Shown here one piece after another: positions 809 to 21,464 of a DNA stretch of 27,624 bases. The notes under the pieces are model-generated. The model did no database searches, had not been told where the DNA came from, and worked only from the letters and a program-made list of their open reading frames with translations. The DNA is from a virus (Duplodnaviria; Heunggongvirae; Uroviricota; Caudoviricetes): the IMG/VR virus record IMGVR_UViG_2565956708_000008. The stretch is one strand, 5' to 3'. Position 1 is the stretch's first letter; each line of letters starts with the position of its first letter. Made by a program: the position numbers and the translations under genes.

Positions 809-1633
<825 letters not shown>

Positions 1634-1742
1634 TCAATTGACAACTTATAATCCCTACTAGTTAGCATTATGATTTCCAGAGTGAGGAATATAAAAATCT
1701 CTGTTTCTGGCACATAACAGCCCTTAAGATCGTAGCTCGCCA

Positions 1743-1789
1743 TCATGGGGTGTCGGGGGGCGGAGGTTCAAATCCTCTCGTGCCGACCA
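1743..1789 (+). other. 3' fragment of tRNA-Pro (T-arm, acceptor 3' strand, CCA); probable att core repeat, not a complete tRNA gene
   Basis: TCATGGGGTGTCGGGGGGCGGAGGTTCAAATCCTCTCGTGCCGACCA matches the 3' ~47 nt of enterobacterial tRNA-Pro(GGG) as I recall it, with one mismatch. The 30 nt upstream do not match the tRNA 5' half. Confidence 0.6.
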
Positions 1790-1803
1790 AAAATCCCTTA
1801 AGA

Positions 1804-1829
1804 ACCAGCCTATTATGGCTGGTTTTTTT
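1804..1829 (+). terminator. rho-independent terminator directly after the tRNA-Pro fragment
   Basis: Stem ACCAGCC / GGCTGGT with loop TATTAT, followed by a run of seven T. Confidence 0.65.
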
Positions 1830-1969
1830 ATGATTGTTTTTTATGCGGAGAAATACCGGGGAATAATTGGGGTAAAACACCTTTAGGCTATTCACTTAGC
1901 CTACCACCATCAAAATCTTTCCGAATGTATCCATCTCTTTTTTCTTATGCAGCTAAAACGAAGTCTTGA

Positions 1970-2017
1970 TACTGTTTATTTACACAGATAAGAATAATAC
2001 TGTCTACAAACGCAGTA
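1970..2017. promoter_or_regulatory. two tandem LexA (SOS) boxes upstream of the DinI-like gene
   Basis: Box 1 at 1970..1989 is TACTGTTTATTTACACAGAT (CTGT-N8-ACAG). Box 2 at 1998..2017 is TACTGTCTACAAACGCAGTA (CTGT-N8-GCAG, one mismatch). Confidence 0.55.
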
Positions 2018-2030
2018 CAAAAGAAGTGTT

Positions 2031-2209
2031 ATGCGTATTGAGATCTCCATAGCCAAAGACAAAATGACCAAATGCCAAACGGCGCTGTGGACGCGTTAAA
2101 GGAAGAATTAACCCAACACATTGGCAAGCGTTATGACGATGTGGAGATGATCGTAAAAGCCACCAGCAACGATAGTTTTTCAGTTAGACATACTGCAGAT
2201 AAAGATTGA
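2031..2209 (+). pseudogene. DinI-like protein, frameshifted
   Basis: Frame 1 gives [14 protein letters not shown] then a stop. The next frame continues (M)[44 protein letters not shown]. Together these align to DinI (MRIEVTIAKTSPLPAGAIDALAGEL...) as I remember it. The shift lies near 2066..2074. Confidence 0.5.
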
Positions 2210-2573
2210 GCTAAAACTTTCGTTCAGGAAACTCTGAATGATACCTGAGAGTCTACTGAAGAGTTGTTTGTTCACTAGTTAGCACGTAGGAAATCATTCA
2301 ATACTCGCACTATCGGAAGTTCACCAGCCAGTCGTAGCACGTCCTTGCAAACGACGTGCCTACGGTTTCAATCACCTCTCACCATCAATTCTATCAATAA
2401 TAATTAAACAGCGCCTAGACAAAATAAATAACAACAAGTCAACAACCTCGACAGGATGCCGATGGGATGATGAAGAGATAAGAAAGAATAACCAGTAAAG
2501 CCCTAAAACGTCAGCGTTCAGACGCGTTTTTTACTTAATCGGTAACAAATACGTTGTATCATAGCAAAATAAA

Positions 2574-4523
2574 ATGATTGTTCTAAATCAGATTAACTCC
2601 TCACTTTTGTACAATGTCGCTTACAGGTATACCATGAAATCCGAGACGCTAACTGTCCAACAACTTTTTCAAGACCGCCGACAATACTGTGTTCCATTCT
2701 ATCAACGTGCCTATGTATGGACTCAGCAAGACCAGTGGTCAGCTCTACTGGAGGATATCCTAGAGAAAGTACAATCCCGGCTCTCGGGTACAAAACCAAC
2801 TCCCCATTTCCTTGGTGCGGTTGTACTGGAACCTCAATCAAAAAAAGGATTATTAGGTGTAGATTCCATACATATTATTGATGGTCAGCAACGATTGACC
2901 ACTCTTCAATATGTTCTGGCATCCATCCGATTAGCATTACGTGCTACGGATCTTTCCAGCTTAGAGGCTCTCATTTCGCCTTGCCTGAAAAACTCAAACG
3001 AAGACACAATGCGAAATAAAGAAGTAGAACGCTTCAAACTGTGGCCAACTTTTCGGGATCAAACTCATTTTATTCAAAGTTTTAATGTTGAAAATATTGA
3101 CGATCTCCGGGACGTATTCTCTGATAGTTTCACGCAGCATGGTACGTTGCGTAAGCATTTTAATCACCCGCCATCACTAGAAGCATTATGTTTTTTTACT
3201 GAAGCCTTTATAAAATGGATTAAAATAGAAAACCACTCACCACAAGAAAATGCTGTAGCTCTAATTGAGGCTGTCTTAACAGATCTGAAACTGGTAAGCA
3301 TATTTCTCGAAGCTGAAGATGATGCCCAAATAATTTTTGAAACATTAAATGGGCGAGGGGCGGAACTTCATGCTACGGATCTTATTCGCAACTATATCTT
3401 TATGTGCGCTGAGCATGAAAATATTAATGCTATTGAATTATATGAAAATGAGTGGAAGAGCTTTGAAGATAAATACTGGTCGGAAAAACAACGCCGTGGA
3501 CGTATTAATAAACCACGCATGGAGTGGCTAGTACATGCGACATTGCAATCAGAAAGGCAACGTGAAATTGATCTGTCTCGCCTTTACAATGAGTATCGTG
3601 ATTATGTAAGTAAGGACTTGTCTTCACAACGAGCAGATCTGCAAGTAAAGCGCCTCAAACAATATGCATCACAATATAAAGAATTGGTTGATGGTTTTGG
3701 CACAACCCCCATCTCACACTTTGGATATCGCATCGCAGACTATGATGTGACGACACTTTATCCGCTTGCTTTGTTCATTTCGATAGCTAACATCGCTGAT
3801 GATGAGAAAGCAGCCATGTATAATGATCTTGTCTCCTACGTAGTACGAAGAGCCGTATGTGGCCTGACGCCAAAGAATTACAACAATGTATTTATGAATG
3901 TATTGCGGCACTTGGCTAAAACGGAAATTTCCAGTGTTGAGTTACGTAATATCCTCAATAACTTAAATGGCGAAGCCTCACGTTGGCCTGGTGACTCAGA
4001 ATTTCTCAACGCTTGCATCAATGCTCCACTTTATCCTGGCAGGCTCGACGCACCGAAAATGCGCTCAATGTTAACGGAACTTGAAAGAGAACTTTGTCGC
4101 CAAGTAAAGACAGAAAAGCCTGATGTTCCAAATCTTTCTAATCTCGATATCGATCATCTTATGCCTCAAAGTTGGTATTCCTGTTGGCCTCTCGAAAATG
4201 GTCGTATGGTGACAAATTCAGATGCTACGGTATTGAACCAAATTGTTCTGTCTGGAACCGATCTTACCCCTGAACAGCTACTGGTAAGGAAACGGCAACA
4301 AGCGATATCTACTTTGGGAAATCTAACTTTGCTTAACCTTAGCGTAAACCGTTCTGTTCAGAATGCTGTATTTCTGAAAAAACGTGATGCTCTCATCGTC
4401 CACACCAATCTACGACTGAACATTCCACTTATAGTTAAGGATAAATGGGATGAGGATGAAATCCTGGAGCGGGGTAAAAAGTTGGGGGAAATTGCATTGA
4501 AAGTATGGCCAAAACACGATTAA
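2574..4523 (+). CDS. GmrSD-like type IV restriction / defence protein (N-terminal DUF262 domain, C-terminal DUF1524 His-Me finger nuclease domain)
   Basis: N-terminal FYQRAYVWT and IIDGQQRLTTLQYVL (DGQQR signature of DUF262). C-terminal DIDHLMPQSW with downstream LGNLTLLNLSVNRSVQN. The start is more likely the internal ATG at 2634 (MKSETLTVQQLF...), which has an AGG 9 nt upstream. Confidence 0.8.
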   Translation: MIVLNQINSSLLYNVAYRYTMKSETLTVQQLFQDRRQYCVPFYQRAYVWTQQDQWSALLEDILEKVQSRLSGTKPTPHFLGAVVLEPQSKKGLLGVDSIHIIDGQQRLTTLQYVLASIRLALRATDLSSLEALISPCLKNSNEDTMRNKEVERFKLWPTFRDQTHFIQSFNVENIDDLRDVFSDSFTQHGTLRKHFNHPPSLEALCFFTEAFIKWIKIENHSPQENAVALIEAVLTDLKLVSIFLEAEDDAQIIFETLNGRGAELHATDLIRNYIFMCAEHENINAIELYENEWKSFEDKYWSEKQRRGRINKPRMEWLVHATLQSERQREIDLSRLYNEYRDYVSKDLSSQRADLQVKRLKQYASQYKELVDGFGTTPISHFGYRIADYDVTTLYPLALFISIANIADDEKAAMYNDLVSYVVRRAVCGLTPKNYNNVFMNVLRHLAKTEISSVELRNILNNLNGEASRWPGDSEFLNACINAPLYPGRLDAPKMRSMLTELERELCRQVKTEKPDVPNLSNLDIDHLMPQSWYSCWPLENGRMVTNSDATVLNQIVLSGTDLTPEQLLVRKRQQAISTLGNLTLLNLSVNRSVQNAVFLKKRDALIVHTNLRLNIPLIVKDKWDEDEILERGKKLGEIALKVWPKHD

Positions 4524-4547
4524 TGCAATTAATAAAATGATTATAGT

Positions 4548-4567
4548 GGCCTTACATTAGTAAGGCC
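4548..4567 (+). terminator. hairpin downstream of the GmrSD-like gene, possible terminator
   Basis: Stem GGCCTTAC / GTAAGGCC with loop ATTA; no clear T-run follows, so this is weak. Confidence 0.3.
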
Positions 4568-5644
4568 GCTACTCACTATTAAATACTTTAATTTGCATCA
4601 AGAACAGCAGTGTCAGCCCTAGGTCTCGGACTTTGTACCGCTTATCTTGTCTTCAAAAATCAGCTCGCATCCTGCACAGTTCAGCGCATTACGTTGTAGA
4701 TCTGTGTTCTGGTCATTTGTTGACACACGTACATAGCCAATAAGCATGGTAGATCTCCCTGACAAAAGCAGGAATGATGCCATTTGCTCGTTATTTCTGC
4801 ATTTTCATAAACGTTGGTTTGGGAGAAGGGGCAGCATGGCCTGTTGGTGAGGCTGAACAACAACCTCCAGACACGTCGCCCTCAAGCGGTCCTGGATGCA
4901 ACGGTAATGTTGTTATTGCTGAAGCTGACGCGGTACTGACACAGGTTGATACGGCAAATATATGCCCCGCATTACGTGTTAAGGGAATTCGTGGCAATGA
5001 TGATGCGCTCAGCGTTTCTAAAAAGTCTGATATGCCGTCAGCAAAAGAGCCATTTGTAGTTCCTATTTATGTGCTGGTAGCTATCATCCCGGTATCTTTG
5101 ACCGCTTAAGGTGGTGAATCTAGCGATACAGCAGGTTCTGGCTCGACCACTGTTAGCATTTCTGCCACTGTCGGTGGTAACAAGACCGTGGCGTGTACAG
5201 TGGCCGATACACTGATCGATACCTTTCCTTCAGACATCGCCTTTAACTCGATCGTGAGAGCAGGATAATGGATAACGCAGTATTAAATAGTGGCGTAAGT
5301 ACAAGTATTTCACTGCATAAAATGTTTTCTGAATATGATGGTGCAACAAGGGTTCATGTTGCCACTATAAGAGAATCTCGTGCCACTGGTGAGGGATTTC
5401 CGGCATTGCCTCCTCAGGGGAAACAAGTTGTACCTAAGGGTTCTGAACCTATATGATGGACTAATAATCCAACTCCTTCAAAATAGGTGGAAGAGCAGAG
5501 GGCTGAAATGAACTAAAAAACTTTAGCGTCAGAATCAAAAAACATCACCAAAACCCATGAGTACCCCGGCAATACAACCACTAGTCCCCTAATAAGCGAA
5601 TAACTTACGTAGGATGATTCGTGGCTGGAGTATCAGGCCGAAGT

Positions 5645-5916
5645 GCAGCAGAGCGACACTGTCTGTGCGGCAGAAGTACAGCGTCCGTCGCTTATTGATG
5701 CTCCGGTCAGATGCAATGCTCTGCTTTAGCGGAAATTGTTGGCGTGACCGCGGCAATGGCATGCAGAAAAGAGCTAACTCAACTCTTTTCTGCCTGCAAC
5801 TGATGCGGTCAGGGCAACAATTACAACTGAAGCGGAGGGAGGGATCTGACCGCAACTTCAAGCAGCGTATGACGCTCTATTTCTGCCGCACATGCTGTGT
5901 CGACATGCTCTGCTGC
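5645..5916. repeat. long imperfect palindrome of about 270 bp, two roughly 75 percent complementary arms around a perfect central hairpin
   Basis: GCAGCAGAGC at 5645..5654 is the reverse complement of 5907..5916, and the arms share blocks such as TGTGCGGCAGAA and GGTCAGAT. The central hairpin at 5763..5793 is GCAGAAAAGAG, loop CTAACTCAA, then CTCTTTTCTGC. Confidence 0.6.
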
Positions 5917-6287
5917 GTCCTGAGACACCAACTACGAATTATACTATGCAACGTCTTCGCTTTTTAGGCGAACAGTAGCTGTTTTTTCGGGCCACTGATC
6001 CGTTTTTGTGAATTTATTGAATTCTGAAACTACAGTGATTTTTACGATTTCACCCGTAAGCACCGCCACATCTTTCGAAGGAGGTAAGTTAACAGACCGT
6101 CAGGGACGTCAACCACCCTCAGCTCCAACTGCTGCCCCTAGTGGGTAAAAAGCCAGAAATCCATCACATGCTTCTATGTTTACATCAATAATGTCAACAG
6201 GAAGCCTTCTCGCACCATCATAGTCTTGAAACATTATTTGCAGAGCATATGTTTTAATACGTCGACAAATTAATACTGAGTTCACTA

Positions 6288-6485
6288 TTACCGTGCAATG
6301 ACGAAATATTTAACTGCAGTGTTTCGTGGAAGGGTTTCGATGAGGTGTTTGTCGACTTTACCCAACATGGAATGATTCTTACCGTCGGCAACAAAAATGC
6401 AACCCGCGGTCGCGTAAATCCCTGTTGAATTACTGAATATAGCACCATAGCCGCTCGTTGATCCCAAAAGGATAGCGCCCAGCAC
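6288..6485 (-). pseudogene. tail fibre distal segment, in frame with the upstream tail fibre gene but separated from it by an amber codon
   Basis: Same frame as 6486..7031 and continues immediately after TAG at 6486..6488; encodes GSTSGYGAIFSNSTGIYATAG, typical Gly/Ser/Thr-rich fibre sequence. Confidence 0.4.
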
Positions 6486-7031
6486 CTAAATAGTACCTAC
6501 AGAGGGCAATTTTGTTGAGAGCATATAAGACTTATAATCACCGCCGCTGGCATCAGCCCAACCAGTCATTCCATCCACCGGTAATTGACCCCATATATTT
6601 GCAGGAACAGTCTGAGCCATTTGCGCGTCAGGTTGACCAATCAAAACATCTCCGTTGCCTTTCGTCAACGTTGATAACGACGTGGCAGAGATTCGTGTTT
6701 CCGGCACGCCCACAGTTCGTTTTGCGGCTTCTCCCAAACCAAGGTTTTCGAGAGCCGTTTTCACCGTGCCGTCCGATTTGATATCGCTAAACGGATTCTT
6801 GCGGCTTAACAGCAGCGCACGAAGCGCGGTAAGCAGCTGGTCGTGCCGCGCCTTCTCCAGACTGGCACCGGATGCCTCCACCACGCTGCAGAGTTCTTCC
6901 TGCAACATGTCAAAGTAGTCATCATCCAGATCGGTGGCAGGCGTGCCTGTCTGGGGGTTACCACGGGTAAAACCGTTCTTACCCGCGCCGAACTTATCCT
7001 TCTGCGCGGTTTTCGTGTCTATACGATGCAT
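6486..7031 (-). CDS. tail fibre protein, N-terminal (constant) part; apparently truncated by an in-frame TAG
   Basis: Position directly after the baseplate genes; Mu S / e14 StfP-like N-terminus ([21 protein letters not shown]...) by recollection. Confidence 0.6.
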
Positions 7032-7034
7032 GGA

Positions 7035-7619
7035 TTACTCCGGATATTTAAAAATTACGTAGGTATGCGAAGGGCAGAGTTTGTTAAGCACACATTCGAC
7101 GACGGTGTCGCCCCAGATACGCAGCGCGGAATCACAGGGATCGCCACATGTCATCCAGGTGCTGTTGGTGGCGGCTGGCATGTTGACCTGCCAGTAATAC
7201 CGCCATTCCGGCGCATTCACCGCGTCAGTACAGGCCGATGAGCAGGTGAACGTGCTTTTGTCGTATCGCGTGATGGTGGCGTCTGGTCTGCCCAGGGCAG
7301 CAAGCTGTGCAAGGTAAAAATCCTCATTGATGCCGCCCGCCAGGTTAACCTTCGCATCCAGTCGTTGCTGACGCTGGCGAAGGGTCTGTGTTCCTGCGGG
7401 AATACATTCATCCGGCAGGCCGCACAGACGCTCCCAGCGATTTATCAGTTCGGTGGTGGTGCGCGGATCCAGCTCCCGCATCAGGGCATCCGCACGCTGA
7501 TGAACGCGGGTTAATGACTGTGCCGCACCGGCAATCGCCGGATCGCTGGCTGACCACGCCGGACCGGGCGGCAGCAGTGCCGACAACAGACGGATGTAAT
7601 CATCGTTTGTCACGCCCAT
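7035..7619 (-). CDS. tail protein, Mu gp48 / YmfQ-like (DUF2313)
   Basis: 194 aa, the same length as e14 YmfQ; sits between the baseplate J-like gene and the tail fibre gene. Confidence 0.55.
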
Positions 7620-8668
7620 GAAATCGTCCCCAGAACCGCCAGTTCATTTTTTGCAATGGAGATATTTTCCGCCGGTGCAAGCAATTGATGGCTGTATTCC
7701 CCGTTCGCACCGGAAATCGCTTCACTGATACGCGACACCTTCAGTTCTCCCTGCGGATAACCATCACGCAGCAGGAACGAACGCAACTCCGCGGTGATGG
7801 CAGCCCGTATTTCCGGTGTATCCGGCGTCACACGGATATGAAAATCCACCGTATGCGCCACCGGCCTGAACACATACAAATCAGAGCCTGCCACCGGGGC
7901 CAGTGGCCCGATATGTTGTCTTGCCGCCGTTTCCGTTGATTCTTCCGGAATGGGATTAATCAGGTCACTGCTGGCAATCATCACACCGACAGTCCCCGTT
8001 CCCATCCAGTGACGGTATGCCCATGCGCGGGTAATGCCGGGCAATTCTTTAGCCCAGACAACATAGTCCCCGTCAGCCCCGCCCTGAGGCGTCCAGTAAT
8101 ACCGCTCAATGACGCGGGCGCGCCACGTTTCCAGCTCTTCAGTATCAAATCCACCTGTCAGAGTGTCTGCCACGCCGGAAGACGGCAGACCATTAACCGG
8201 CGTGACCAGGATTAATGACGTACCGTCGTCAGCGTTACCGACCGCGCCTGCACTTGAGCAGGCGATCGGCACGCGCAGGACACCACCGGCGCTGGTTGCA
8301 TCGGCAGTTGCCGTGTACTGAATCAGGTCATCGCGCTGAATAACACTCCCGGCGGTCACCTTCAGGCCATCGCTGACGCCTTCCCAGCGCATATACCCGC
8401 TGGCAGTCGTGGCCCCCTTGCGCGGACACCGTTTCATCGCAGCATGTCGCGCCAGCCAGGACTCATCGCACAGGTCAGGCAGCATGTTCATTGCCAGATA
8501 ATCGATGTACCCGTAAACCGTATGCAGCGCCGCCGCATACACCTTTGCCCGCACGTCTTCATCCATGCGCCGGAGCGTGTCGCTGACGTCCAGCCTGGCG
8601 AATAAATCGTTACGGAGCATACTGATATTTTCTGCCAGCGTCGGGCGCTGAAATTCACTGTCCGCCAT
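7610..8668 (-). CDS. baseplate J-like protein (Mu gp47-like)
   Basis: 352-aa ORF overlapping its neighbours in a translationally coupled baseplate block; size and position fit baseplate J. Confidence 0.65.
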
Positions 8669-9083
8669 GCGTTATCGCACTCCACAGATCATCTAAAGAA
8701 ATCATTACCGGTCCGTCACGACGCCAGAGAGTGATACTGTTACCCAGTTCATTAATCCCGGTGCGGAGGATATCCAGATCAATACGGGACACCACGCCGT
8801 CATCAATCATCCATTGCAGGCATTCGCGGATATACCCCCTTACCGTCTGCACCAGCTGATTGGTCAGTTTGCTGCGCTGAAGCAGCCACAGTCGGGAGCC
8901 GTAACGGTCATTCTGTACCGCAGGCCAGGTATCCCCCCACCATCCCATCGGGACGTCGGCGTTGTCATCAGGCTCCGCCCGCCGCCAGGTAAACAGGGAA
9001 ATCACCACGGCGCGGGTCAGCGGATCCAGCGGTGCGCTGGCGCAGGTGCGTTTACCGTTCACCGTCAGCCACAGTTCCATCAT
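8655..9083 (-). CDS. baseplate protein, Mu gp46-like / GPW-gp25 family
   Basis: 142 aa, between the spike-like and J-like genes; overlapping start and stop with both neighbours. Confidence 0.55.
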   Translation of the reverse strand: MMELWLTVNGKRTCASAPLDPLTRAVVISLFTWRRAEPDDNADVPMGWWGDTWPAVQNDRYGSRLWLLQRSKLTNQLVQTVRGYIRECLQWMIDDGVVSRIDLDILRTGINELGNSITLWRRDGPVMISLDDLWSAITHGGQ

Positions 9084-9628
9084 GCCTCCATCGCTTTATC
9101 AGGTTTGTCGGTGTTACTGCCCTGACCGTTCTCTCTGTGACGATGCCCGTTATAGGCAAGCCGCATCGCTGACATGGTGGTGCCGCTGGAGTCGCACAGG
9201 TCTTTCACCTGTCCTGTCACTTCCAGGTCCATTTCAAAACGTGCTTCAGGTGCATTGCGAAACGTGATCGTTTTACCTGCACCGTCCACCACGATCCCCT
9301 CCCGGGTCAGCGTCACAGACTGCCCCTGATCGTCATAGACCGCCACCTCACCCGTCTGCAGCCCTTTCAGGCGGTAGCGCCGGTCCGACACCGTAACAAC
9401 CACCGCATGAGAACGGTCACCATCCGGAAACAACACCACCGCTTCCGCACCGCTGTTTGCCCTTGCGGTAAAACCGTAGGGTTCAAGATGTTCAACCCCG
9501 GCTTTGGGTTCACCGGCAATCAGGGACACATCCACGGTCTGACATTTCGTGGCGGCACTGATGCTTTTCACCACTGCCCGCCCAATCAGGCCGAGGAGTT
9601 GTCGCTGCATGGCTTCAATCGTACTCAT
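9080..9628 (-). CDS. baseplate assembly protein V / spike (Mu gp45-like)
   Basis: 182 aa; N-terminal LLGLIGRAVV pattern typical of gpV-like proteins; sits in the baseplate block. Confidence 0.6.
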   Translation of the reverse strand: MSTIEAMQRQLLGLIGRAVVKSISAATKCQTVDVSLIAGEPKAGVEHLEPYGFTARANSGAEAVVLFPDGDRSHAVVVTVSDRRYRLKGLQTGEVAVYDDQGQSVTLTREGIVVDGAGKTITFRNAPEARFEMDLEVTGQVKDLCDSSGTTMSAMRLAYNGHRHRENGQGSNTDKPDKAMEA

Positions 9629-10707
9629 CAGAACGGGTCCTCCTGTACTCTGGCTTTTTTCTTTTTCCGCGCGCCGGGGGCTTCGGGTTCAGGCAGATAA
9701 GCATCAGGTGGGCCGACACGGATTTCCGTCAGGGTGCCGTTCTGGTCCTGAGTAAACGTGACTTCCGAGACAAGCAGTTCGGTATTGTCGAAACCACAGA
9801 CCGGATCGAAGACAATCACCCGCTGGTTGGGCTGCCACAGCGTACCGTTACCCTGTCGCCAGCCCTGCACCACATAGGTGGTTTCATCCGTCCGCGCCGC
9901 CCGTTGTCGGGCTTCAAAGTCAGCACGCGCAATACAGCCTGCCCCCGTAGCCTGCCCTGTCTGCCTGATATACATCGGACGGTAACGGGCAATAAATGCG
10001 TCCTCTGTGCGGGCCCGCAGCGCGCTGGTGGTGGCCTCACCGAAATCATCGTCGTTTCCAGCACGCTGCCCCGCCACCTGGTAAACAGAAAACCGCTCCC
10101 GGATACTCTTCTCCGTATCGCAGGAAAGGATGTTTTCCCCGAGTACCAGCGCAGTATGTGCCCGCGTTGAGCCAATACCGCCAATCACCAGCCTGCCGTG
10201 TGGGTCGTCGTAAGCCAGTGCCTGCTGCTGACCGAGTATTTTGTTGATTACCTCAATCACCGTTTCACCGTGATCGGGCTGGACGTCAGGAATAACACCC
10301 GACGGCGCACCGTTGTTCACCACCTCAATGCCGAAAGGCGCAGCAAGCGCCTGCGCAATCTGTACCAGCGATCGTCCGTTAAACTGTGTCGGTTCGGCTG
10401 CACAGTCAATCAGGTCAGCGGTCAGACTGCGTCCGGCAATACCGGTGCTGACCGAACGGGCATCGTAACGAACGGGCGTCGCCTCCACCCAGCCGGTGAT
10501 CACCAGCTCATCACCAATCAGCACCTCCACTTTTGAACCGTTTTTAATGCGCGGCTGAAGCGTGGTGATACCCTCATCACCCGGCCACTGGCGGGTGATC
10601 TCCACACTGAAATCCCGCGCCAGCCGTTCAATACCGGCACCGATGCGCACCGATGTCCAGCCATTCCACTCCCGGCCATTTACCCGTAGCGTGACGTTAT
10701 CGTTCAT
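9628..10707 (-). CDS. tail protein, Mu gpP-like / P2 gpD-like
   Basis: 359 aa, directly downstream of the Mu N-like gene and upstream of the baseplate genes. Confidence 0.6.
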   Translation of the reverse strand: MNDNVTLRVNGREWNGWTSVRIGAGIERLARDFSVEITRQWPGDEGITTLQPRIKNGSKVEVLIGDELVITGWVEATPVRYDARSVSTGIAGRSLTADLIDCAAEPTQFNGRSLVQIAQALAAPFGIEVVNNGAPSGVIPDVQPDHGETVIEVINKILGQQQALAYDDPHGRLVIGGIGSTRAHTALVLGENILSCDTEKSIRERFSVYQVAGQRAGNDDDFGEATTSALRARTEDAFIARYRPMYIRQTGQATGAGCIARADFEARQRAARTDETTYVVQGWRQGNGTLWQPNQRVIVFDPVCGFDNTELLVSEVTFTQDQNGTLTEIRVGPPDAYLPEPEAPGARKKKKARVQEDPF

Positions 10708-16353: not shown

Positions 16354-16914
16354 TCAGGAAGGAAGGGGTATTTCGGTGTGATGTTCGATATCGCCGTCAG
16401 ACCCGTTACCGGGATCGAGATAATCAACATCAATCGCCAGCGTTCGCAGTTCATCCAGACTGTTCAGGTCATCCTGCTGGCGGGTATCGTCTTCGGTCAG
16501 CTCTCTGATGACCGAAAAATCGAACTGATAAATCAGCTCATGACGATTCAGATCCAGCAGCGTGCCGCCGTCATAGGTAATCGGGTTACCGCACGCTTCC
16601 GGGTTCCAGCCCAGCAGGGCCTTAAAGAGCATCTGCCGGACATCGTCCACCACATCATACGAGGCAAACTGACCGCGCTCATCACGTCCGTTACTCAGTA
16701 TGACAACCACGGAGAAGCCCTCTTTCAGCTCCTGCCAGTAGTCGGTCTGGCTTTTGTTTTCTCCCGGAGAGTCATCACCCGGTACCACATATGCCGCCGG
16801 GAGTCTCAGCTTTCCGACCTCCGGCAGATTTTTGAACTGTGCCGCGCCTGCCACCCGGTTTTCAAAATACGGGCAGCGGGCACGCAGCGCAGCAATAACA
16901 GGCGTCAGTTTCAT
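16354..16914 (-). CDS. tail-associated protein (possible sheath terminator / tail completion protein)
   Basis: 186-aa ORF between the head-completion genes and the sheath gene, stop overlapping the upstream gene. Confidence 0.45.
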   Translation of the reverse strand: MKLTPVIAALRARCPYFENRVAGAAQFKNLPEVGKLRLPAAYVVPGDDSPGENKSQTDYWQELKEGFSVVVILSNGRDERGQFASYDVVDDVRQMLFKALLGWNPEACGNPITYDGGTLLDLNRHELIYQFDFSVIRELTEDDTRQQDDLNSLDELRTLAIDVDYLDPGNGSDGDIEHHTEIPLPS

Positions 16915-17417
16915 CTGCGTCGTCGCTCCGGCTTCAGTGATTTACGTAATTCCCGCGCCAGAAAATAGCGTGTCCAGCTGCGGTTCTTTTCAAGCGTTTC
17001 CACCATAAAGTTATTACGTGGAGCCAGTCGCCAGCCGCTGCCACCGGATGCACCACGATGATGGCTGCGACGACGCTTTGCCCCTCGCCTCACGCCATAG
17101 AACAAAAAAGCCGGATAAAAATCACCGGTGATACGGCGGTTTCCCTCTCCATTACGCTGGTTAGGGGCTATACGTGCCATAAAACCAGGGCGATGTTTAC
17201 TGGCTCTGGGTACCATGTAACCAATCGAACGAGCCAGGCGTCCGGTCTGATAACCGGGGTTTTCACCCGGTGCCGACCGCGCACGGCGCATCACCAGCCG
17301 ACGGGCATCACGCATATGACGCTGACCAATCGTGACAAACGCCCGCCGGACACGGGCGCGGTTAAAGCGCATCTCCGCGGGCTGCTGAAAATCAACGTGC
17401 AAAAAGGAAGTCGTCAT
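16911..17417 (-). CDS. HK97 gp10-like head-tail joining protein
   Basis: 168 aa, strongly basic; position after the head closure protein. Confidence 0.45.
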   Translation of the reverse strand: MTTSFLHVDFQQPAEMRFNRARVRRAFVTIGQRHMRDARRLVMRRARSAPGENPGYQTGRLARSIGYMVPRASKHRPGFMARIAPNQRNGEGNRRITGDFYPAFLFYGVRRGAKRRRSHHRGASGGSGWRLAPRNNFMVETLEKNRSWTRYFLARELRKSLKPERRRR

Positions 17418-17802
17418 TGTTGCCTCCGTGACTCTGCCTACATTCGCCCAGCTCCGTACACTCCAGCAGCAGAAAGCGCCGCGCCCCGTTCAGATCGCGC
17501 TGACGTTTCACCCGGTACACACTGTCACCGCAGACCACCTCATAATCAGCGGTAATCCCCCGGCGGTAACGAATGGTGATGTAATGGGTGATGGCGTCCC
17601 CGGTCTGCGCGGTTTCCTGCCAGGTGGTGGCACTGGTCTGGATAACCTTCGCCCATGTCCGGAACGTAATCAGGTATTGAGGCTCCACGCCAAAGTTATC
17701 CGCGGGCATATCCACCCGCAGGCGGATCAGGACGCGTTTATTCAGTTCACCGGGGTCCGGCAGAATGTAGGTTGCGCTGGTCTGCGCCTGACGAATTTTC
17801 AT
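17392..17802 (-). CDS. head closure / head-tail adaptor protein
   Basis: 136-aa ORF between the gp6-like connector and gp10-like genes. Confidence 0.5.
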   Translation of the reverse strand: MKIRQAQTSATYILPDPGELNKRVLIRLRVDMPADNFGVEPQYLITFRTWAKVIQTSATTWQETAQTGDAITHYITIRYRRGITADYEVVCGDSVYRVKRQRDLNGARRFLLLECTELGECRQSHGGNNDDFLFAR

Positions 17803-18122
17803 TGCGGAAAGTACCTGTACGGGCCGACAAGCCAGCCAAAACTCTGCGGCATGTCGAGTTTCTCCACTTCCGTAACCGACGAGCGGTTTTCGTAAAAATG
17901 GCTGATAAGCATCAGCATCCCCAGACGAATATCATCCGGCAGGTGCAGCCCGTCCGGATCGCTGTCCGGAATGGTTTCATCCGGTGCATAGAGCTTCCGG
18001 TTCAGATACGTTTCCGTCCGCTTTTGTGCCGCACAGGCCAGCAGTTGCAGATGGCGGTCATCAGCATCGAAATCCTCATCCAGCCGGAGTTGGGCTTTAA
18101 TCTCTTCCATTGTCAGAAGCAT
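17799..18122 (-). CDS. gp6-like head-tail connector protein
   Basis: 107 aa; N-terminal MEEIKAQLRLDEDFDADD...LL pattern typical of gp6-like connectors; follows the capsid gene. Confidence 0.6.
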   Translation of the reverse strand: MLLTMEEIKAQLRLDEDFDADDRHLQLLACAAQKRTETYLNRKLYAPDETIPDSDPDGLHLPDDIRLGMLMLISHFYENRSSVTEVEKLDMPQSFGWLVGPYRYFPQ

Positions 18123-18124
18123 AC

Positions 18125-18325
18125 TCAGCCCTCTTTACTGGTCGTGGCTTTTTTCTCTTTTGCCGCTTTACTGCTTTTTGCACTGATTCCGCGCTCTGCT
18201 AACCCGGCCTGAAGTGCAATCTCCTGCACCCGGGCAGGAAGCGCCCCATCGTCATACTCACCGGCCCGAATGACCTCAACACGCATACCGTCCGGTGACC
18301 ATTTCAGATCTTGTTTCAGGATCAT
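18125..18325 (-). CDS. small hypothetical head-region protein
   Basis: 66-aa ORF between the capsid and connector genes with a Lys/Ala-rich tail. Confidence 0.35.
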   Translation of the reverse strand: MILKQDLKWSPDGMRVEVIRAGEYDDGALPARVQEIALQAGLAERGISAKSSKAAKEKKATTSKEG

Positions 18326-18374
18326 GATTCTTCACCCGTCAGAACAGGGGGCGCGGTTCCGCGCCCCTGAGTGA

Positions 18375-19580
18375 TTACGCCGCTGCAATCTTCAGCAGTT
18401 TGATGGCCTGCGAATCGACCAGCATCCCGCCGGTGCGCTTGGTGGTATAAAAACCGACAAACGGTTTATTGGTGTACGGGTCACGCAGAATGCGGGTGCC
18501 GATACGGTCAACGATGGTGTAACCCCGTTTGAAGTTACCAAATGCAATGGCTTTCGCATCAGCGGCGATATCCGGCATCTGTTCGTTTTCAGCGATACCG
18601 TAACCCGCCAGAGAGGACGGCTGCCCCAGTTCCAGCCCCGGACGCCACAGATAGTTACCCTCGCTGTCTTTAAGCAGACGGATGGCAAACAGGCTGTTGT
18701 TGTTCATCATGAACTTCGCGCCAGTGCGGTGTGCCTTACGCAGCGTGTAAATCAGTTTGATAATGGCGTCTGCGGTCACCGCCGTCGCTTCGCCGGATAC
18801 AATATGCTGAAGTTTGCCGAACGCCCGGACCTTATCGGTTTCATCAGTGGATTCATACGCCAGGAACCCTTTCGGCTTCTTGGTACCATCGCCGGTGGTA
18901 AAGGCAATTTCTTCCTGTTCGGCAAATTCGGTTGCCAGCTCGCTGTTGATCCATGCTTCCACGTTGAAAAAGGCATCATCCAGCATTTTCTGGGTGGCCT
19001 GCGGGTTACCGTAGATTTCCCCCATGAAAGGTTCAATCAGGCCCAGTTTTGAGGTGGCAGTCTGGGAGCGCGCGTCAGTCTCGCCAACCCATCCGGAAGC
19101 CGTGCCGCCCAGATTCACCAGTTTTTTGTAGTCGGAACCACCAACGGTGATCACCGTGGCTTCCTGGCGCATCACCACTTCATCTTTCAGCAGGGTGAGA
19201 ATGTTGCGATCCAGTGCTTCCGGCACGGCATAGCCGCCGTCTTCATCGGTGCCCACCTGCAATGCCTTGCGCTCCAGATCGCGCAGACCATCTTCACGGC
19301 CTTTACGCAGGAAGCCCACAAACGCTTCTTTATGCTCGGTGGCCAGTTTATTTTGCGCACCACCTGCCGGACGTTTCAGCTCAAGCAGCTCTTTTTCAAG
19401 ATCGCTTTTGAGGTTTTCCAGCTCGCTGAGTTTCCCGTTCAGGGTTTCCACCTGCCCGGCAAGTTTGCCTTTTTCCTGCTCAATCGCATCCACGCGCTTG
19501 TCGTTCTTTGCTTTGAAGTCGTCAAACTTCTGCTGCAGCTCCTGCGCGACCTGTTCGACATCTTTAATATCAACCGCCAT
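18375..19580 (-). CDS. major capsid protein, HK97 family
   Basis: 401 aa with an N-terminal coiled-coil delta (scaffolding) domain (EQEKGKLAGQVETLNGKLSELENLKSDLEKELLELK), followed by the capsid body; sits after the protease gene. Confidence 0.85.
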   Translation of the reverse strand: MAVDIKDVEQVAQELQQKFDDFKAKNDKRVDAIEQEKGKLAGQVETLNGKLSELENLKSDLEKELLELKRPAGGAQNKLATEHKEAFVGFLRKGREDGLRDLERKALQVGTDEDGGYAVPEALDRNILTLLKDEVVMRQEATVITVGGSDYKKLVNLGGTASGWVGETDARSQTATSKLGLIEPFMGEIYGNPQATQKMLDDAFFNVEAWINSELATEFAEQEEIAFTTGDGTKKPKGFLAYESTDETDKVRAFGKLQHIVSGEATAVTADAIIKLIYTLRKAHRTGAKFMMNNNSLFAIRLLKDSEGNYLWRPGLELGQPSSLAGYGIAENEQMPDIAADAKAIAFGNFKRGYTIVDRIGTRILRDPYTNKPFVGFYTTKRTGGMLVDSQAIKLLKIAAA

Positions 19581-19594
19581 CGTATTTCTCCTGA

Positions 19595-20281
19595 TTAGAA
19601 GTTCAGATTTTTCAGTGCATTCAGTGCAGAGCCCACATCCTCAGCGTCGCGCAGGGACAGTGCGCCATAGCCCCCGGCCATGAATGCTTTGGCCTGGGTA
19701 CGGGAGAGTCCGACATCACGCAGGACTCTTTCGATTTTTTTCTGTTCGGGGATTTCCCCGCGGGCCAGTGCGTTCTTGACGTCGCTGATCCGCGCCTCGT
19801 CGTTAGACGGGAACGTCACCAGGCTGACTTCCCAGAGGTCGATTTCTTTCAGCAGAAAGGCTTCTTTGCTCCGGTCGTATTCCCAGTCTTTCAGGACGTA
19901 CCCAATAGAAAGGCCGGTTAACGAACCGGCCTTCATGTGTGCATGTGCGCGTTTTGCGAGGGGATCATCATCAATAAGCAACCGTCCCCTGACGTAAAGC
20001 CCGACATCGTCTTCCTTCATTTCGGTGTAAACACCGATGGGTTCATCCATGCGGTGCTGCCAGAGCAGCGCAGGTAACGCTTTTCTGTCACTCCACGCCC
20101 GCAGGGAAGCAGCAAATGCCCCGGACATCACCACATCATCGTGGCTGTCCTTTACACCAAAGACGGAGCCATACCCTTCAAACTCACCGGAGTCACTGAC
20201 AGATTTCAGACTCAGCGGTACATCAAGACGTTGTTTCGTCTGCATTGGCGTTATCCTTCTGCTTACCGGCTTTACTGCCAT
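19595..20281 (-). CDS. prohead protease, HK97 family
   Basis: 228 aa between the portal and capsid genes. Confidence 0.75.
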   Translation of the reverse strand: MAVKPVSRRITPMQTKQRLDVPLSLKSVSDSGEFEGYGSVFGVKDSHDDVVMSGAFAASLRAWSDRKALPALLWQHRMDEPIGVYTEMKEDDVGLYVRGRLLIDDDPLAKRAHAHMKAGSLTGLSIGYVLKDWEYDRSKEAFLLKEIDLWEVSLVTFPSNDEARISDVKNALARGEIPEQKKIERVLRDVGLSRTQAKAFMAGGYGALSLRDAEDVGSALNALKNLNF

Positions 20282-21464
20282 CGGAGGGTTTCGTGGTCAT
20301 GTTCATCGGTGTGAGATAGACATCCCCACCGGGACGGGGATTCATATCTTCCAGGTCGCGGCAGTCATTGGGAGAGTAAATTCCCCAGTTAATCCCGGTG
20401 GCGTAGGCTTCAAAACGGGACTTCATATCCCCGCGCAGTAACGCCCCGGCGTTAAATTTGGCGTAATAAACGCCCTGCTTACTTTTTCGAACCAGTCCGG
20501 TGTTGATCCGCTGCTCGATGCGGGTCAGATACGGCACCAGTGAATAGTTGATAAATCCCAGCCCCAGCTCTTCAATATTGTTGAAGGTGGCGCGATCGGT
20601 GTTCTGCACCATGTGCAACGGCACCCGGAACAGACGACAGATTTCTTCAAGCTGAAACTTGCGGGTTTCCAGGAACTGGCTGTCCTCGGCGTTCAGCGCC
20701 ATCGACTTCCAGTCCAGCCCCATCTCAAGGATCATCGGGCGGTGAGCATTACCAAGCCCGGTGTGACGCTCCTCAAAATCTTTCTTCAGGCGCTCGTAAG
20801 CCTGATCTGACAGCGTCTGCTCTGTACGCAACACACCCGACGTCACCGCACCATTGCTGAACAGTCTGGCCCCGTGCTCTTCGGTCGCAGCTGCCAGCGA
20901 TATTGCCTCGCGAGCATAGGCGATGGGATTCAGCCCCACCAGACCGTCCAGCGTCAGCGTGCGCACATGCCAGATATCTTCCTGGCTCAGCACATCCGTG
21001 GAGCCGTCCGAGAATGTGACCTGATAGACCGGCTCCCAGCTACTGTTAAGCTTCGGTACCACACAGCCAGGATCGACGGGCAGCAGTTCAGCCACTTCGC
21101 CAAATGCTTTCACTTTGTAGGCGTAAAAGTTTCCCCGCAGGCACAGACAGGTGACCACCAGCTCCCAGAACTCCTGCGGCGTCATATAGCCATTGGGATG
21201 CGTGGAGATCAGCTTATGCAGACGTTCGCCGGTGGCCCTCTGTTTCAGGCTGCCGTTCAGGTGATACAGATTGCAGGGCAACATCCCGACCGACTCTGCC
21301 AGCACCCTGACGCAGGAAAAAACCGCCGTCAGTCGCATGGCCCGCTGGCTGCTGATCTGCTTTCCGGTATAGGTGTCGTATGACAGCCCGATAGCCTCCG
21401 CCAGCTCTGCTGGCGTGGTCACCGGCGCGTCACTTTTTCGTTGAAATAATCCCGAAAAGAACAC
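20223..21464 (-). CDS. portal protein, HK97 family
   Basis: 413 aa immediately downstream of the terminase module. Confidence 0.8.
   Translation of the reverse strand: MFFSGLFQRKSDAPVTTPAELAEAIGLSYDTYTGKQISSQRAMRLTAVFSCVRVLAESVGMLPCNLYHLNGSLKQRATGERLHKLISTHPNGYMTPQEFWELVVTCLCLRGNFYAYKVKAFGEVAELLPVDPGCVVPKLNSSWEPVYQVTFSDGSTDVLSQEDIWHVRTLTLDGLVGLNPIAYAREAISLAAATEEHGARLFSNGAVTSGVLRTEQTLSDQAYERLKKDFEERHTGLGNAHRPMILEMGLDWKSMALNAEDSQFLETRKFQLEEICRLFRVPLHMVQNTDRATFNNIEELGLGFINYSLVPYLTRIEQRINTGLVRKSKQGVYYAKFNAGALLRGDMKSRFEAYATGINWGIYSPNDCRDLEDMNPRPGGDVYLTPMNMTTKPSDGSKAGKQKDNANADETTS

Follow-up and report, generated by a model that had tools for sequence, protein, structure and literature searches.

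The window, that is, the whole stretch of 27,624 nucleotides that was analysed, corresponds to the public record KI538675.1 from the draft assembly GCA_000494955.1 of E. coli HVH 12, with which it is identical across 17,031 compared bases. The prophage that it belongs to appears complete and has Mu-like tail genes, and its E. coli host is extraintestinal. The locus under study is made up of the following features, given in the coordinates of the window.

2634 to 4523, plus strand: GmrSD-type (DUF262/DUF1524) type IV restriction gene (GmrSD_N at 6.8e-34, GmrSD_C at 3.5e-20), flanking cargo.
4625 to 4747, minus strand: remnant of a pin invertase gene, codons 1 to 41, within the ORF 4619-4783 and with the catalytic-serine motif YVRVSTNDQ.
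4663 to 4726, no strand: possible Fis-bound recombinational enhancer inside the retained 123 bp of pin, with Fis-like 15-mers at 4712-4726 and 4663-4677.
4777 to 5268, plus strand: position of the unexpressed alternative C-terminus of the fibre, chimeric and unreadable here, containing an artefactual TAA.
4802 to 4827, minus-strand reading TTCTCCCAAACCAACGTTTATGAAAA: left 26-bp crossover site, central dinucleotide at 4814-4815, identical at 26 of 26 positions to the e14 site adjoining pinE.
4830 to 6726, no strand: chimeric stretch whose bases derive, one by one, from the forward or the inverted orientation of an invertible segment.
5268 to 5870, plus strand: position of tfaE, a tail-fibre assembly gene (200 aa in the forward parent, Caudo_TAP at 4.4e-30), chimeric, with 9 stops.
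5842 to 6285, minus strand: position of a second tail-fibre assembly gene (147 aa in the forward parent, Caudo_TAP at 5.9e-28), chimeric, with 4 stops.
6288 to 7031, minus strand: tail-fibre gene of 247 codons, with a constant head from 7031 to about 6742 and an exchangeable end from 6741 to 6288, chimeric from 6726 downward.
6729 to 6754, reading TTCTCCCAAACCAAGGTTTTCGAGAG: right 26-bp crossover site, central dinucleotide at 6741-6742, identical at 26 of 26 positions to the e14 site within stfP/ycfK.

As deposited, the coding part of this region is broken throughout. The minus-strand fibre frame, which runs from 7031 to 6288, is interrupted by a lone in-frame TAG at 6486-6488, beyond which it continues into "...VLGAILLGSTSGYGAIFSNSTG..." and stays open for 65 further codons, the total of 247 codons being the length of an intact fibre. 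Its 181-aa truncated product occurs a single time in the protein collection, as 'phage tail protein [Escherichia coli HVH 12 (4-7653042)]' on scaffold KI538675.1. On the plus strand, the frame at 4774..5265 carries an internal TAA at 5107-5109 in addition to its terminal TAA at 5266-5268, and with the nine plus-strand and four minus-strand stops of the two middle frames (5268-5870 and 5842-6285, respectively), all four frames of the segment are interrupted. A preliminary description of this DNA had taken the region, which it placed at 4570-6485, for the remains of a decayed invertible fibre segment of the type found in e14, Mu and P1.

The assignment of the position to that class is borne out by the gene order, which reads ymfQ - fibre - tfa - tfa' - alternative fibre end - pin, and by the 26-bp crossover sites, whose presence had been proposed as a check and which were indeed found at 4802-4827 and 6729-6754. 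The two sites contain the published e14 repeat TTGGTTTGGGAGAAGG (Kirigo et al. 2025, PMC12529663), are inverted relative to each other with the central AA/TT common to both, and mirror each other about a centre at 5778. The right site lies within the fibre gene at the codons for ENLGLGE (fibre codons about 93-101), and the distance between the two crossover centres gives a segment of about 1.93 kb.

The statement in the same description that no invertase is present needs amendment, since the N-terminal remnant at 4625-4747 on the minus strand is identical to K-12 PinE in all 41 of its residues, the DNA homology to e14 pinE stopping at 4626. The remnant matches positions 2-48 of the 145 positions of the Pfam Resolvase family and, in the Gin structure 4m6f, residues 1-41 of 193 (34 of 41 identical); it lacks the remainder of the catalytic domain as well as the DNA-binding domain of an enzyme whose full length is about 185-193 codons. 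A functional invertase adjoining the segment is thus absent; the same truncation of pin is found in the annotations of IHE3034, PA45B, and PMV-1, and in IHE3034 RefSeq annotates the stretch as a recombinase missing its C-terminus. The place of the missing 3' part of pin is occupied by the GmrSD gene, where e14 has pinE-mcrA. The remaining 123 bp of pin may keep a Fis-bound enhancer, as judged from two Fis-like motifs centred at distances of 95.5 and 144.5 bp from the middle of the left crossover site, a motif as relaxed as this being common by chance; the geometry used for this assignment is that of the Hin enhancer, which is 65 bp long and located about 100 bp from hixL (PMC3798978).

The limits of the anomaly become apparent from a comparison with the colinear 8.7 kb of E. 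coli IHE3034 (NC_017628.1), which served as the reference. The flanks (1400-4829 and 6727-10100 of the window, 6.8 kb) are 100% identical to it, and all 636 mismatches fall, evenly distributed, into 4830-6726, a stretch of 1,897 bases that aligns at 66% identity with zero indels and that is bounded exactly by the two inverted 26-bp sites. The affected region is therefore 4830-6726 and not 4570-6485, and within the fibre gene it reaches upstream of the TAG by 240 bases. The same limits are seen at the level of the proteins, of which the GmrSD/DUF262 protein, the pin remnant, and YmfQ are each 100% identical to those of IHE3034, as are fibre residues 1 to about 102, whereas the products of the four genes between the pin remnant and YmfQ, although colinear, are just 37-67% identical. 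The 636 differences have a transition to transversion ratio of 220:416 (1:1.9) and no codon-position bias, and a substitution spectrum this flat is unlike natural divergence.

The origin of these differences is revealed when each position is compared both with the IHE3034 orientation (forward) and with the same segment reverse-complemented (inverted). Among the 1,897 positions, 540 match both orientations, 721 match the forward one only, 636 match the inverted one only, and 0 match neither, which means that every single difference from IHE3034 is the base of the inverted orientation. A simple inversion relative to IHE3034 was considered and ruled out, the stretch being 66% identical to the forward orientation and 62% to its reverse complement, and 100% identical to neither. 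For the IHE3034 segment compared with its own reverse complement, the identity is 28%, as expected by chance, and the fit is lost when the mirror axis is moved by as little as one base, leaving 440-473 positions unexplained. The deposited sequence is thereby shown to be a base-by-base mixture of the two orientations of an intact e14-type segment. An anomaly of this size far exceeds what chance would produce, but it is not decay, each of the 1,897 bases being accounted for by one orientation or the other of a known intact segment.

A genuinely decayed segment, in which point mutations and stops would have accumulated since the loss of the invertase, is what the stop-interrupted state of all four frames and the truncation of the invertase would seem to indicate, and this is how the region had been described at first. 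Such a history is nevertheless very improbable: mutation would have had to arrive 636 times at the base of the inverted orientation and never at another, without a single indel in 1.9 kb at 66% identity, at a transition to transversion ratio of 1:1.9 and without codon-position bias, next to flanks that are 100% identical over 6.8 kb; the pure orientations are open in 150 complete genomes, a second strain (see below) holds the same two parents in another random mixture, and the stretch is resembled by none of 50,697 phage records. The 'decayed' fibre region with its in-frame stops is an assembly artefact and not a real feature of the organism.

The choice between the two sources behaves as if made independently at each position. 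Along the 1,357 informative positions it forms 671 runs, compared to 677 expected (z = -0.3); no base is preferred, and the choices at mirror-image positions are independent of each other. A deterministic rule for the choice of base was likewise ruled out: no base is favoured, neither clustering into runs nor mirror symmetry is seen, and the picks made in one chimeric assembly do not correlate with those made in the other.

The two stops on which the preliminary description had been built are thus present in the sequence as stated but are not biological, both of them being mixed codons. The TAG at 6486-6488 is a plus-strand CTA composed from forward CTT and inverted ATA, which on the fibre strand are AAG (Lys) and TAT (Tyr), and the TAA at 5107-5109 is composed from forward TCA (Ser) and inverted TAT (Tyr). 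Independent picks would create this TAG about 1 time in 4, and it is missing from the 150 complete genomes with pure orientations. Its being a sequencing error, which had been named as an outcome that would speak against decay, is in effect what was found, two orientations having been mixed in one codon. It could still be argued that the TAG is real and is read through, by means of an amber suppressor or by programmed readthrough, to give a full-length fibre, given that the frame remains open for 65 codons after it and that the total of 247 codons corresponds to the intact fibre. In addition to the mixed Lys/Tyr codon, however, the chimeric residues on either side of the TAG match no family in a Pfam search, whereas both parental ends do, and the search for a suppressor that had been suggested yielded neither a tRNA gene nor an Rfam match within the window, so that readthrough has next to no probability.

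In contrast to the mixture, each of the two pure orientations contains four intact genes. The fibre is open in either of them, at 247 aa, with the head of about 100 residues in common and one of two 150-residue ends, of which one matches the Pfam Collar family (1.2e-15) and the other Gp53-like_C, at 22.9 bits and hence below the cutoff of 24.9. At 4777..5268 on the plus strand, the forward parent has an intact ORF of 163 aa with the collar-type end, and the inverted parent has an intact ORF with the other end. The parents are therefore composed of two opposed sets, each consisting of an alternative fibre end followed by its own Caudo_TAP chaperone. Flipping joins the constant head of about 100 residues to one of two alternative receptor-binding ends, each with its own chaperone. 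Taken as a whole, the best explanation, which can be held with high confidence, is that the strain carries at this position an intact invertible segment for the tail fibre, of the same type as the P segment of e14 and an ordinary member of the known e14/Mu/P1 class. Both orientations exist in complete E. coli genomes, 110 of which are inverted relative to IHE3034 (including UTI89, S88, NU14, and ATCC 11775) and 40 of which are forward (including IHE3034 and APEC O1), as determined with a query that takes in the truncated pin as well as the end of the GmrSD gene, and with a match over at least 80% of the query length, every listed match in fact having 100% coverage at at least 99.9% identity.

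A sharp onset of divergence at the conserved crossover sites would also be expected if a natural, divergent allele of the module had been exchanged by recombination at these sites, and variants of the module with intact genes do exist, in PMV-1 and IMT5155. These two genomes, which had been considered as further chimeras on account of their odd scores, were ruled out as such and are natural variants. An allele of this kind would, however, keep its frames open and show indels and a third-position bias, nor would the two orientations of a single other allele account for each of its bases. Neither was a relative found: no place in 5,426 E. coli genomes covers 80% of the chimeric query, and in the 50,697 phage records the matches are of just 52-177 bp. 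The probability of a natural allele is accordingly negligible.

The mixture of the two orientations is not confined to HVH 12. A second 181-aa fibre product is found in E. coli UMEA 3893-1 (GCA_000461775.1), where the segment is another chimera of the same two parents, with 661 forward, 696 inverted, and 0 other positions. Between its picks and those made in the window there is no correlation (2x2 table 347/374/314/322), which identifies it as an independent chimera. A different form of damage is present in the 'complete' genome of PA45B, in which 106 of the 107 differences from IHE3034 over 8.7 kb are located inside the segment; most of them are one-base deletions, and RefSeq therefore annotates frameshifted pseudogenes there. 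In all three strains the damage is confined to the invertible segment.

These observations also bear on whether a mixed population is needed at all, since two copies of the prophage region in HVH 12, each fixed in the orientation opposite to the other and merged during assembly, would yield the same pair of equal-length alternatives, and parts of the region do find similar sequence at more than one place in some related genomes. Such a collapse is nonetheless improbable, in view of the fact that the 2.7-kb region is single in IHE3034, UTI89, and most of the listed close relatives, that the flanks hold no mixed positions in the 8.7-kb comparison outside 4830-6726, that the same anomaly occurs in two further strains, and that cultures with a mixture of orientations are known for e14-type segments (PMC12529663).

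In the mechanism proposed here for the mixed sequence, the DNA that was sequenced would have held both orientations of the segment, as suggested by the consensus, and the assembly pipeline merged the two alternatives of equal length into one by picking one base independently at each differing position, the per-base picks themselves being visible in the sequence. Tools of the ALLPATHS/Arachne family replace ambiguity codes by random compatible bases. What came out of this merging is a sequence that no cell ever contained, with artefactual stops and broken frames. Literature searches on the assembly of the HVH and UMEA genomes or on the flattening of ambiguities by ALLPATHS-LG returned nothing usable, and no published description of the per-base form of chimera at phase-variable inversions was found in the literature searched.

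With its own invertase cut to 41 codons, the inversion of this segment would have to come in trans, presumably being catalysed by another small serine invertase of the host. A precedent is provided by PinQ of the prophage Qin, which inverts the e14 P segment, both orientations being present in culture and wild-type K-12 cultures being about 30% inverted (Kirigo et al. 2025, PMC12529663); it differs from the present case in that PinE is also available in cis there, while here action in trans alone would be possible. Full-length pinE-like genes are present in 2,521 of 5,426 E. coli genomes. Among the genomes that have this prophage, IHE3034, UTI89, NU14, and PA45B contain another place that resembles the 3' part of pinE, the evidence for the first two being counts of similar places only; a pinQ-like gene is present in S88 and MS7163, and the invertase of a P2-like prophage was located in FDAARGOS_1303, SF-173, and GN04979. 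In several related complete genomes, e.g. ZJ3920, ExPEC XM, and SF-166, no pinE-like or pinQ-like gene was found on the chromosome at the DNA level, and among the genomes compared there is no clean link between the orientation of the segment and the presence of a second invertase. It may be suggested, tentatively and as something rather less probable than its opposite, that the segment lost its invertase to the insertion of the defence gene, kept both crossover sites and probably the enhancer, and still flips by way of the invertases of other prophages often enough in ordinary cultures of several extraintestinal E. coli strains to spoil their assemblies, and that it may be kept by the host for a phase-variable function and not for switching the host range of a phage. 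By analogy, the function retained in this case may comprise e.g. surface or anti-phage effects such as those reported for the e14 product StfE2.

The biological weight of these findings is small, the real locus being an ordinary invertible fibre segment. Their consequence lies in the databases, in that a public GenBank record and the proteins derived from it in nr, e.g. the 181-aa 'phage tail protein' of HVH 12, hold a sequence that never existed, and that damage at this locus extends to at least two further genomes, one of them a 'complete' RefSeq genome with frameshifted pseudogenes. Scans for pseudogenes, for stop-codon readthrough, or for fast-evolving fibre tips would pick up such places. 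They can be detected by a simple test, which consists in asking whether, between inverted repeats, every base matches either the reference or its reverse complement. Chimeras of this kind also point out segments of which the sequenced culture contained both orientations, in this case one without an invertase of its own.

Among the known systems, the closest is the P segment of e14 in K-12, which has the same gene order (ymfQ-stfP-tfaP-tfaE-stfE-pinE-mcrA) and with which the locus shares 95% DNA identity from ymfQ into the fibre head, both 26-bp sites, the location of one site within the fibre gene, two alternative ends each with a Caudo_TAP chaperone, a type IV restriction gene after pin, and the occurrence of both orientations among sequenced genomes (PMC12529663 for e14). 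It differs from e14 in that pin is cut after codon 41, leaving no invertase in cis, in that the neighbouring gene is of the GmrSD type and not mcrA, and in the length of the segment, which is about 1.93 kb compared to the published 1,797 bp. The variable ends differ as well, with only short DNA matches of 66-69% beyond the constant part and the end of pin, and while e14 is a 15-kb remnant, the prophage here looks complete and has a Mu-like tail. The G segment of Mu (Gin) and the C segment of P1 (Cin) are likewise fibre host-range switches with a small serine invertase and inverted 26-bp sites, one of them within the fibre gene, but they have a functional invertase in cis and are larger, at 3 and 4.2 kb, respectively (PMC12529663). 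In the phage collection, the DNA similar to the segment is limited to short tfa stretches. As regards the damage to consensus sequences at phase-variable inversions, it takes the form of a per-base chimera in HVH 12 and UMEA 3893-1 and of a cluster of indel errors in PA45B, in all cases between the recombination sites.

In the window, a truncated pin is followed by a type IV restriction gene of the GmrSD type, with the retained 5′ end of the invertase gene carrying two Fis-like 15-mers:

2634-4523, plus strand, GmrSD-type (DUF262/DUF1524) type IV restriction gene
4625-4747, minus strand, pin remnant, cut after codon 41
4663-4677 and 4712-4726, the two Fis-like 15-mers in the retained 5′ end of pin

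This differs from e14, in which pinE and then mcrA are found at the corresponding place; one slot at the prophage end has therefore been taken by different defence genes, and in the window the invertase was lost through insertion of such a gene. The two Fis-like 15-mers are spaced 49 bp apart, and they are as far from the crossover site as is expected of a Hin-type enhancer. With both of them retained at such a distance, the invertible segment may still be a full substrate for an invertase working in trans.

Switching within one lineage despite the truncated cis invertase is suggested by a single series of isolates with complete E. coli genomes, in which, among the matches listed, N1, N21, N31, N41, N56, N61, and N63 carry the segment in the forward (IHE3034) orientation and N66 in the inverted one, its chromosomal coordinate being nearly equal across isolates of differing orientation.

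The draft assembly of E. coli UMEA 3893-1 (GCA_000461775.1, scaffold KE702650.1) is the second to contain a per-base chimera of the invertible segment; this chimera is independent and base by base matches the forward orientation at 661 positions, the inverted one at 696, and neither at 0; a shortened 181-aa “phage tail protein” in nr also stems from it. In PA45B (NZ_CP021288.1), 106 of the 107 differences from IHE3034 over the 8.7 kb compared fall in the invertible segment, most of them being one-base deletions, in the following stretch:

4829-6697 (3430-5298 of the PA45B locus, L002), damaged in comparison with IHE3034

RefSeq, where this genome is labelled “complete”, annotates frameshifted pseudogenes here, and the segment looks like a long-read consensus spoiled by reads from both orientations.

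In relatives, the annotation gives the fibre end that is not expressed as a “phage tail protein” of 163 aa, whose N-terminal start, MPFARYFCIFINVGLGE, is located upstream of the crossover site:

4777-4829, plus strand, start of the unexpressed fibre end (annotation in relatives)

Its counterpart in e14 is stfE, the inversion product of which, StfE2, reportedly blocks adsorption of phage T2 (PMC12529663).

Window bases 1-95 have no match to IHE3034. Farther out, the HVH 12 source scaffold (16815-20420 of locus L005) carries an IS3-type transposase as well as DpnII/MboI-like ORFs that are split, pointing to an insertion beside the prophage end in HVH 12. Two features annotated in IHE3034 are situated between the tail genes of the prophage and the chromosome, possibly as additional accessory cargo:

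809-1615, minus strand, LEM-3-like GIY-YIG nuclease gene
~2031-2248, plus strand, DinI-like pseudogene
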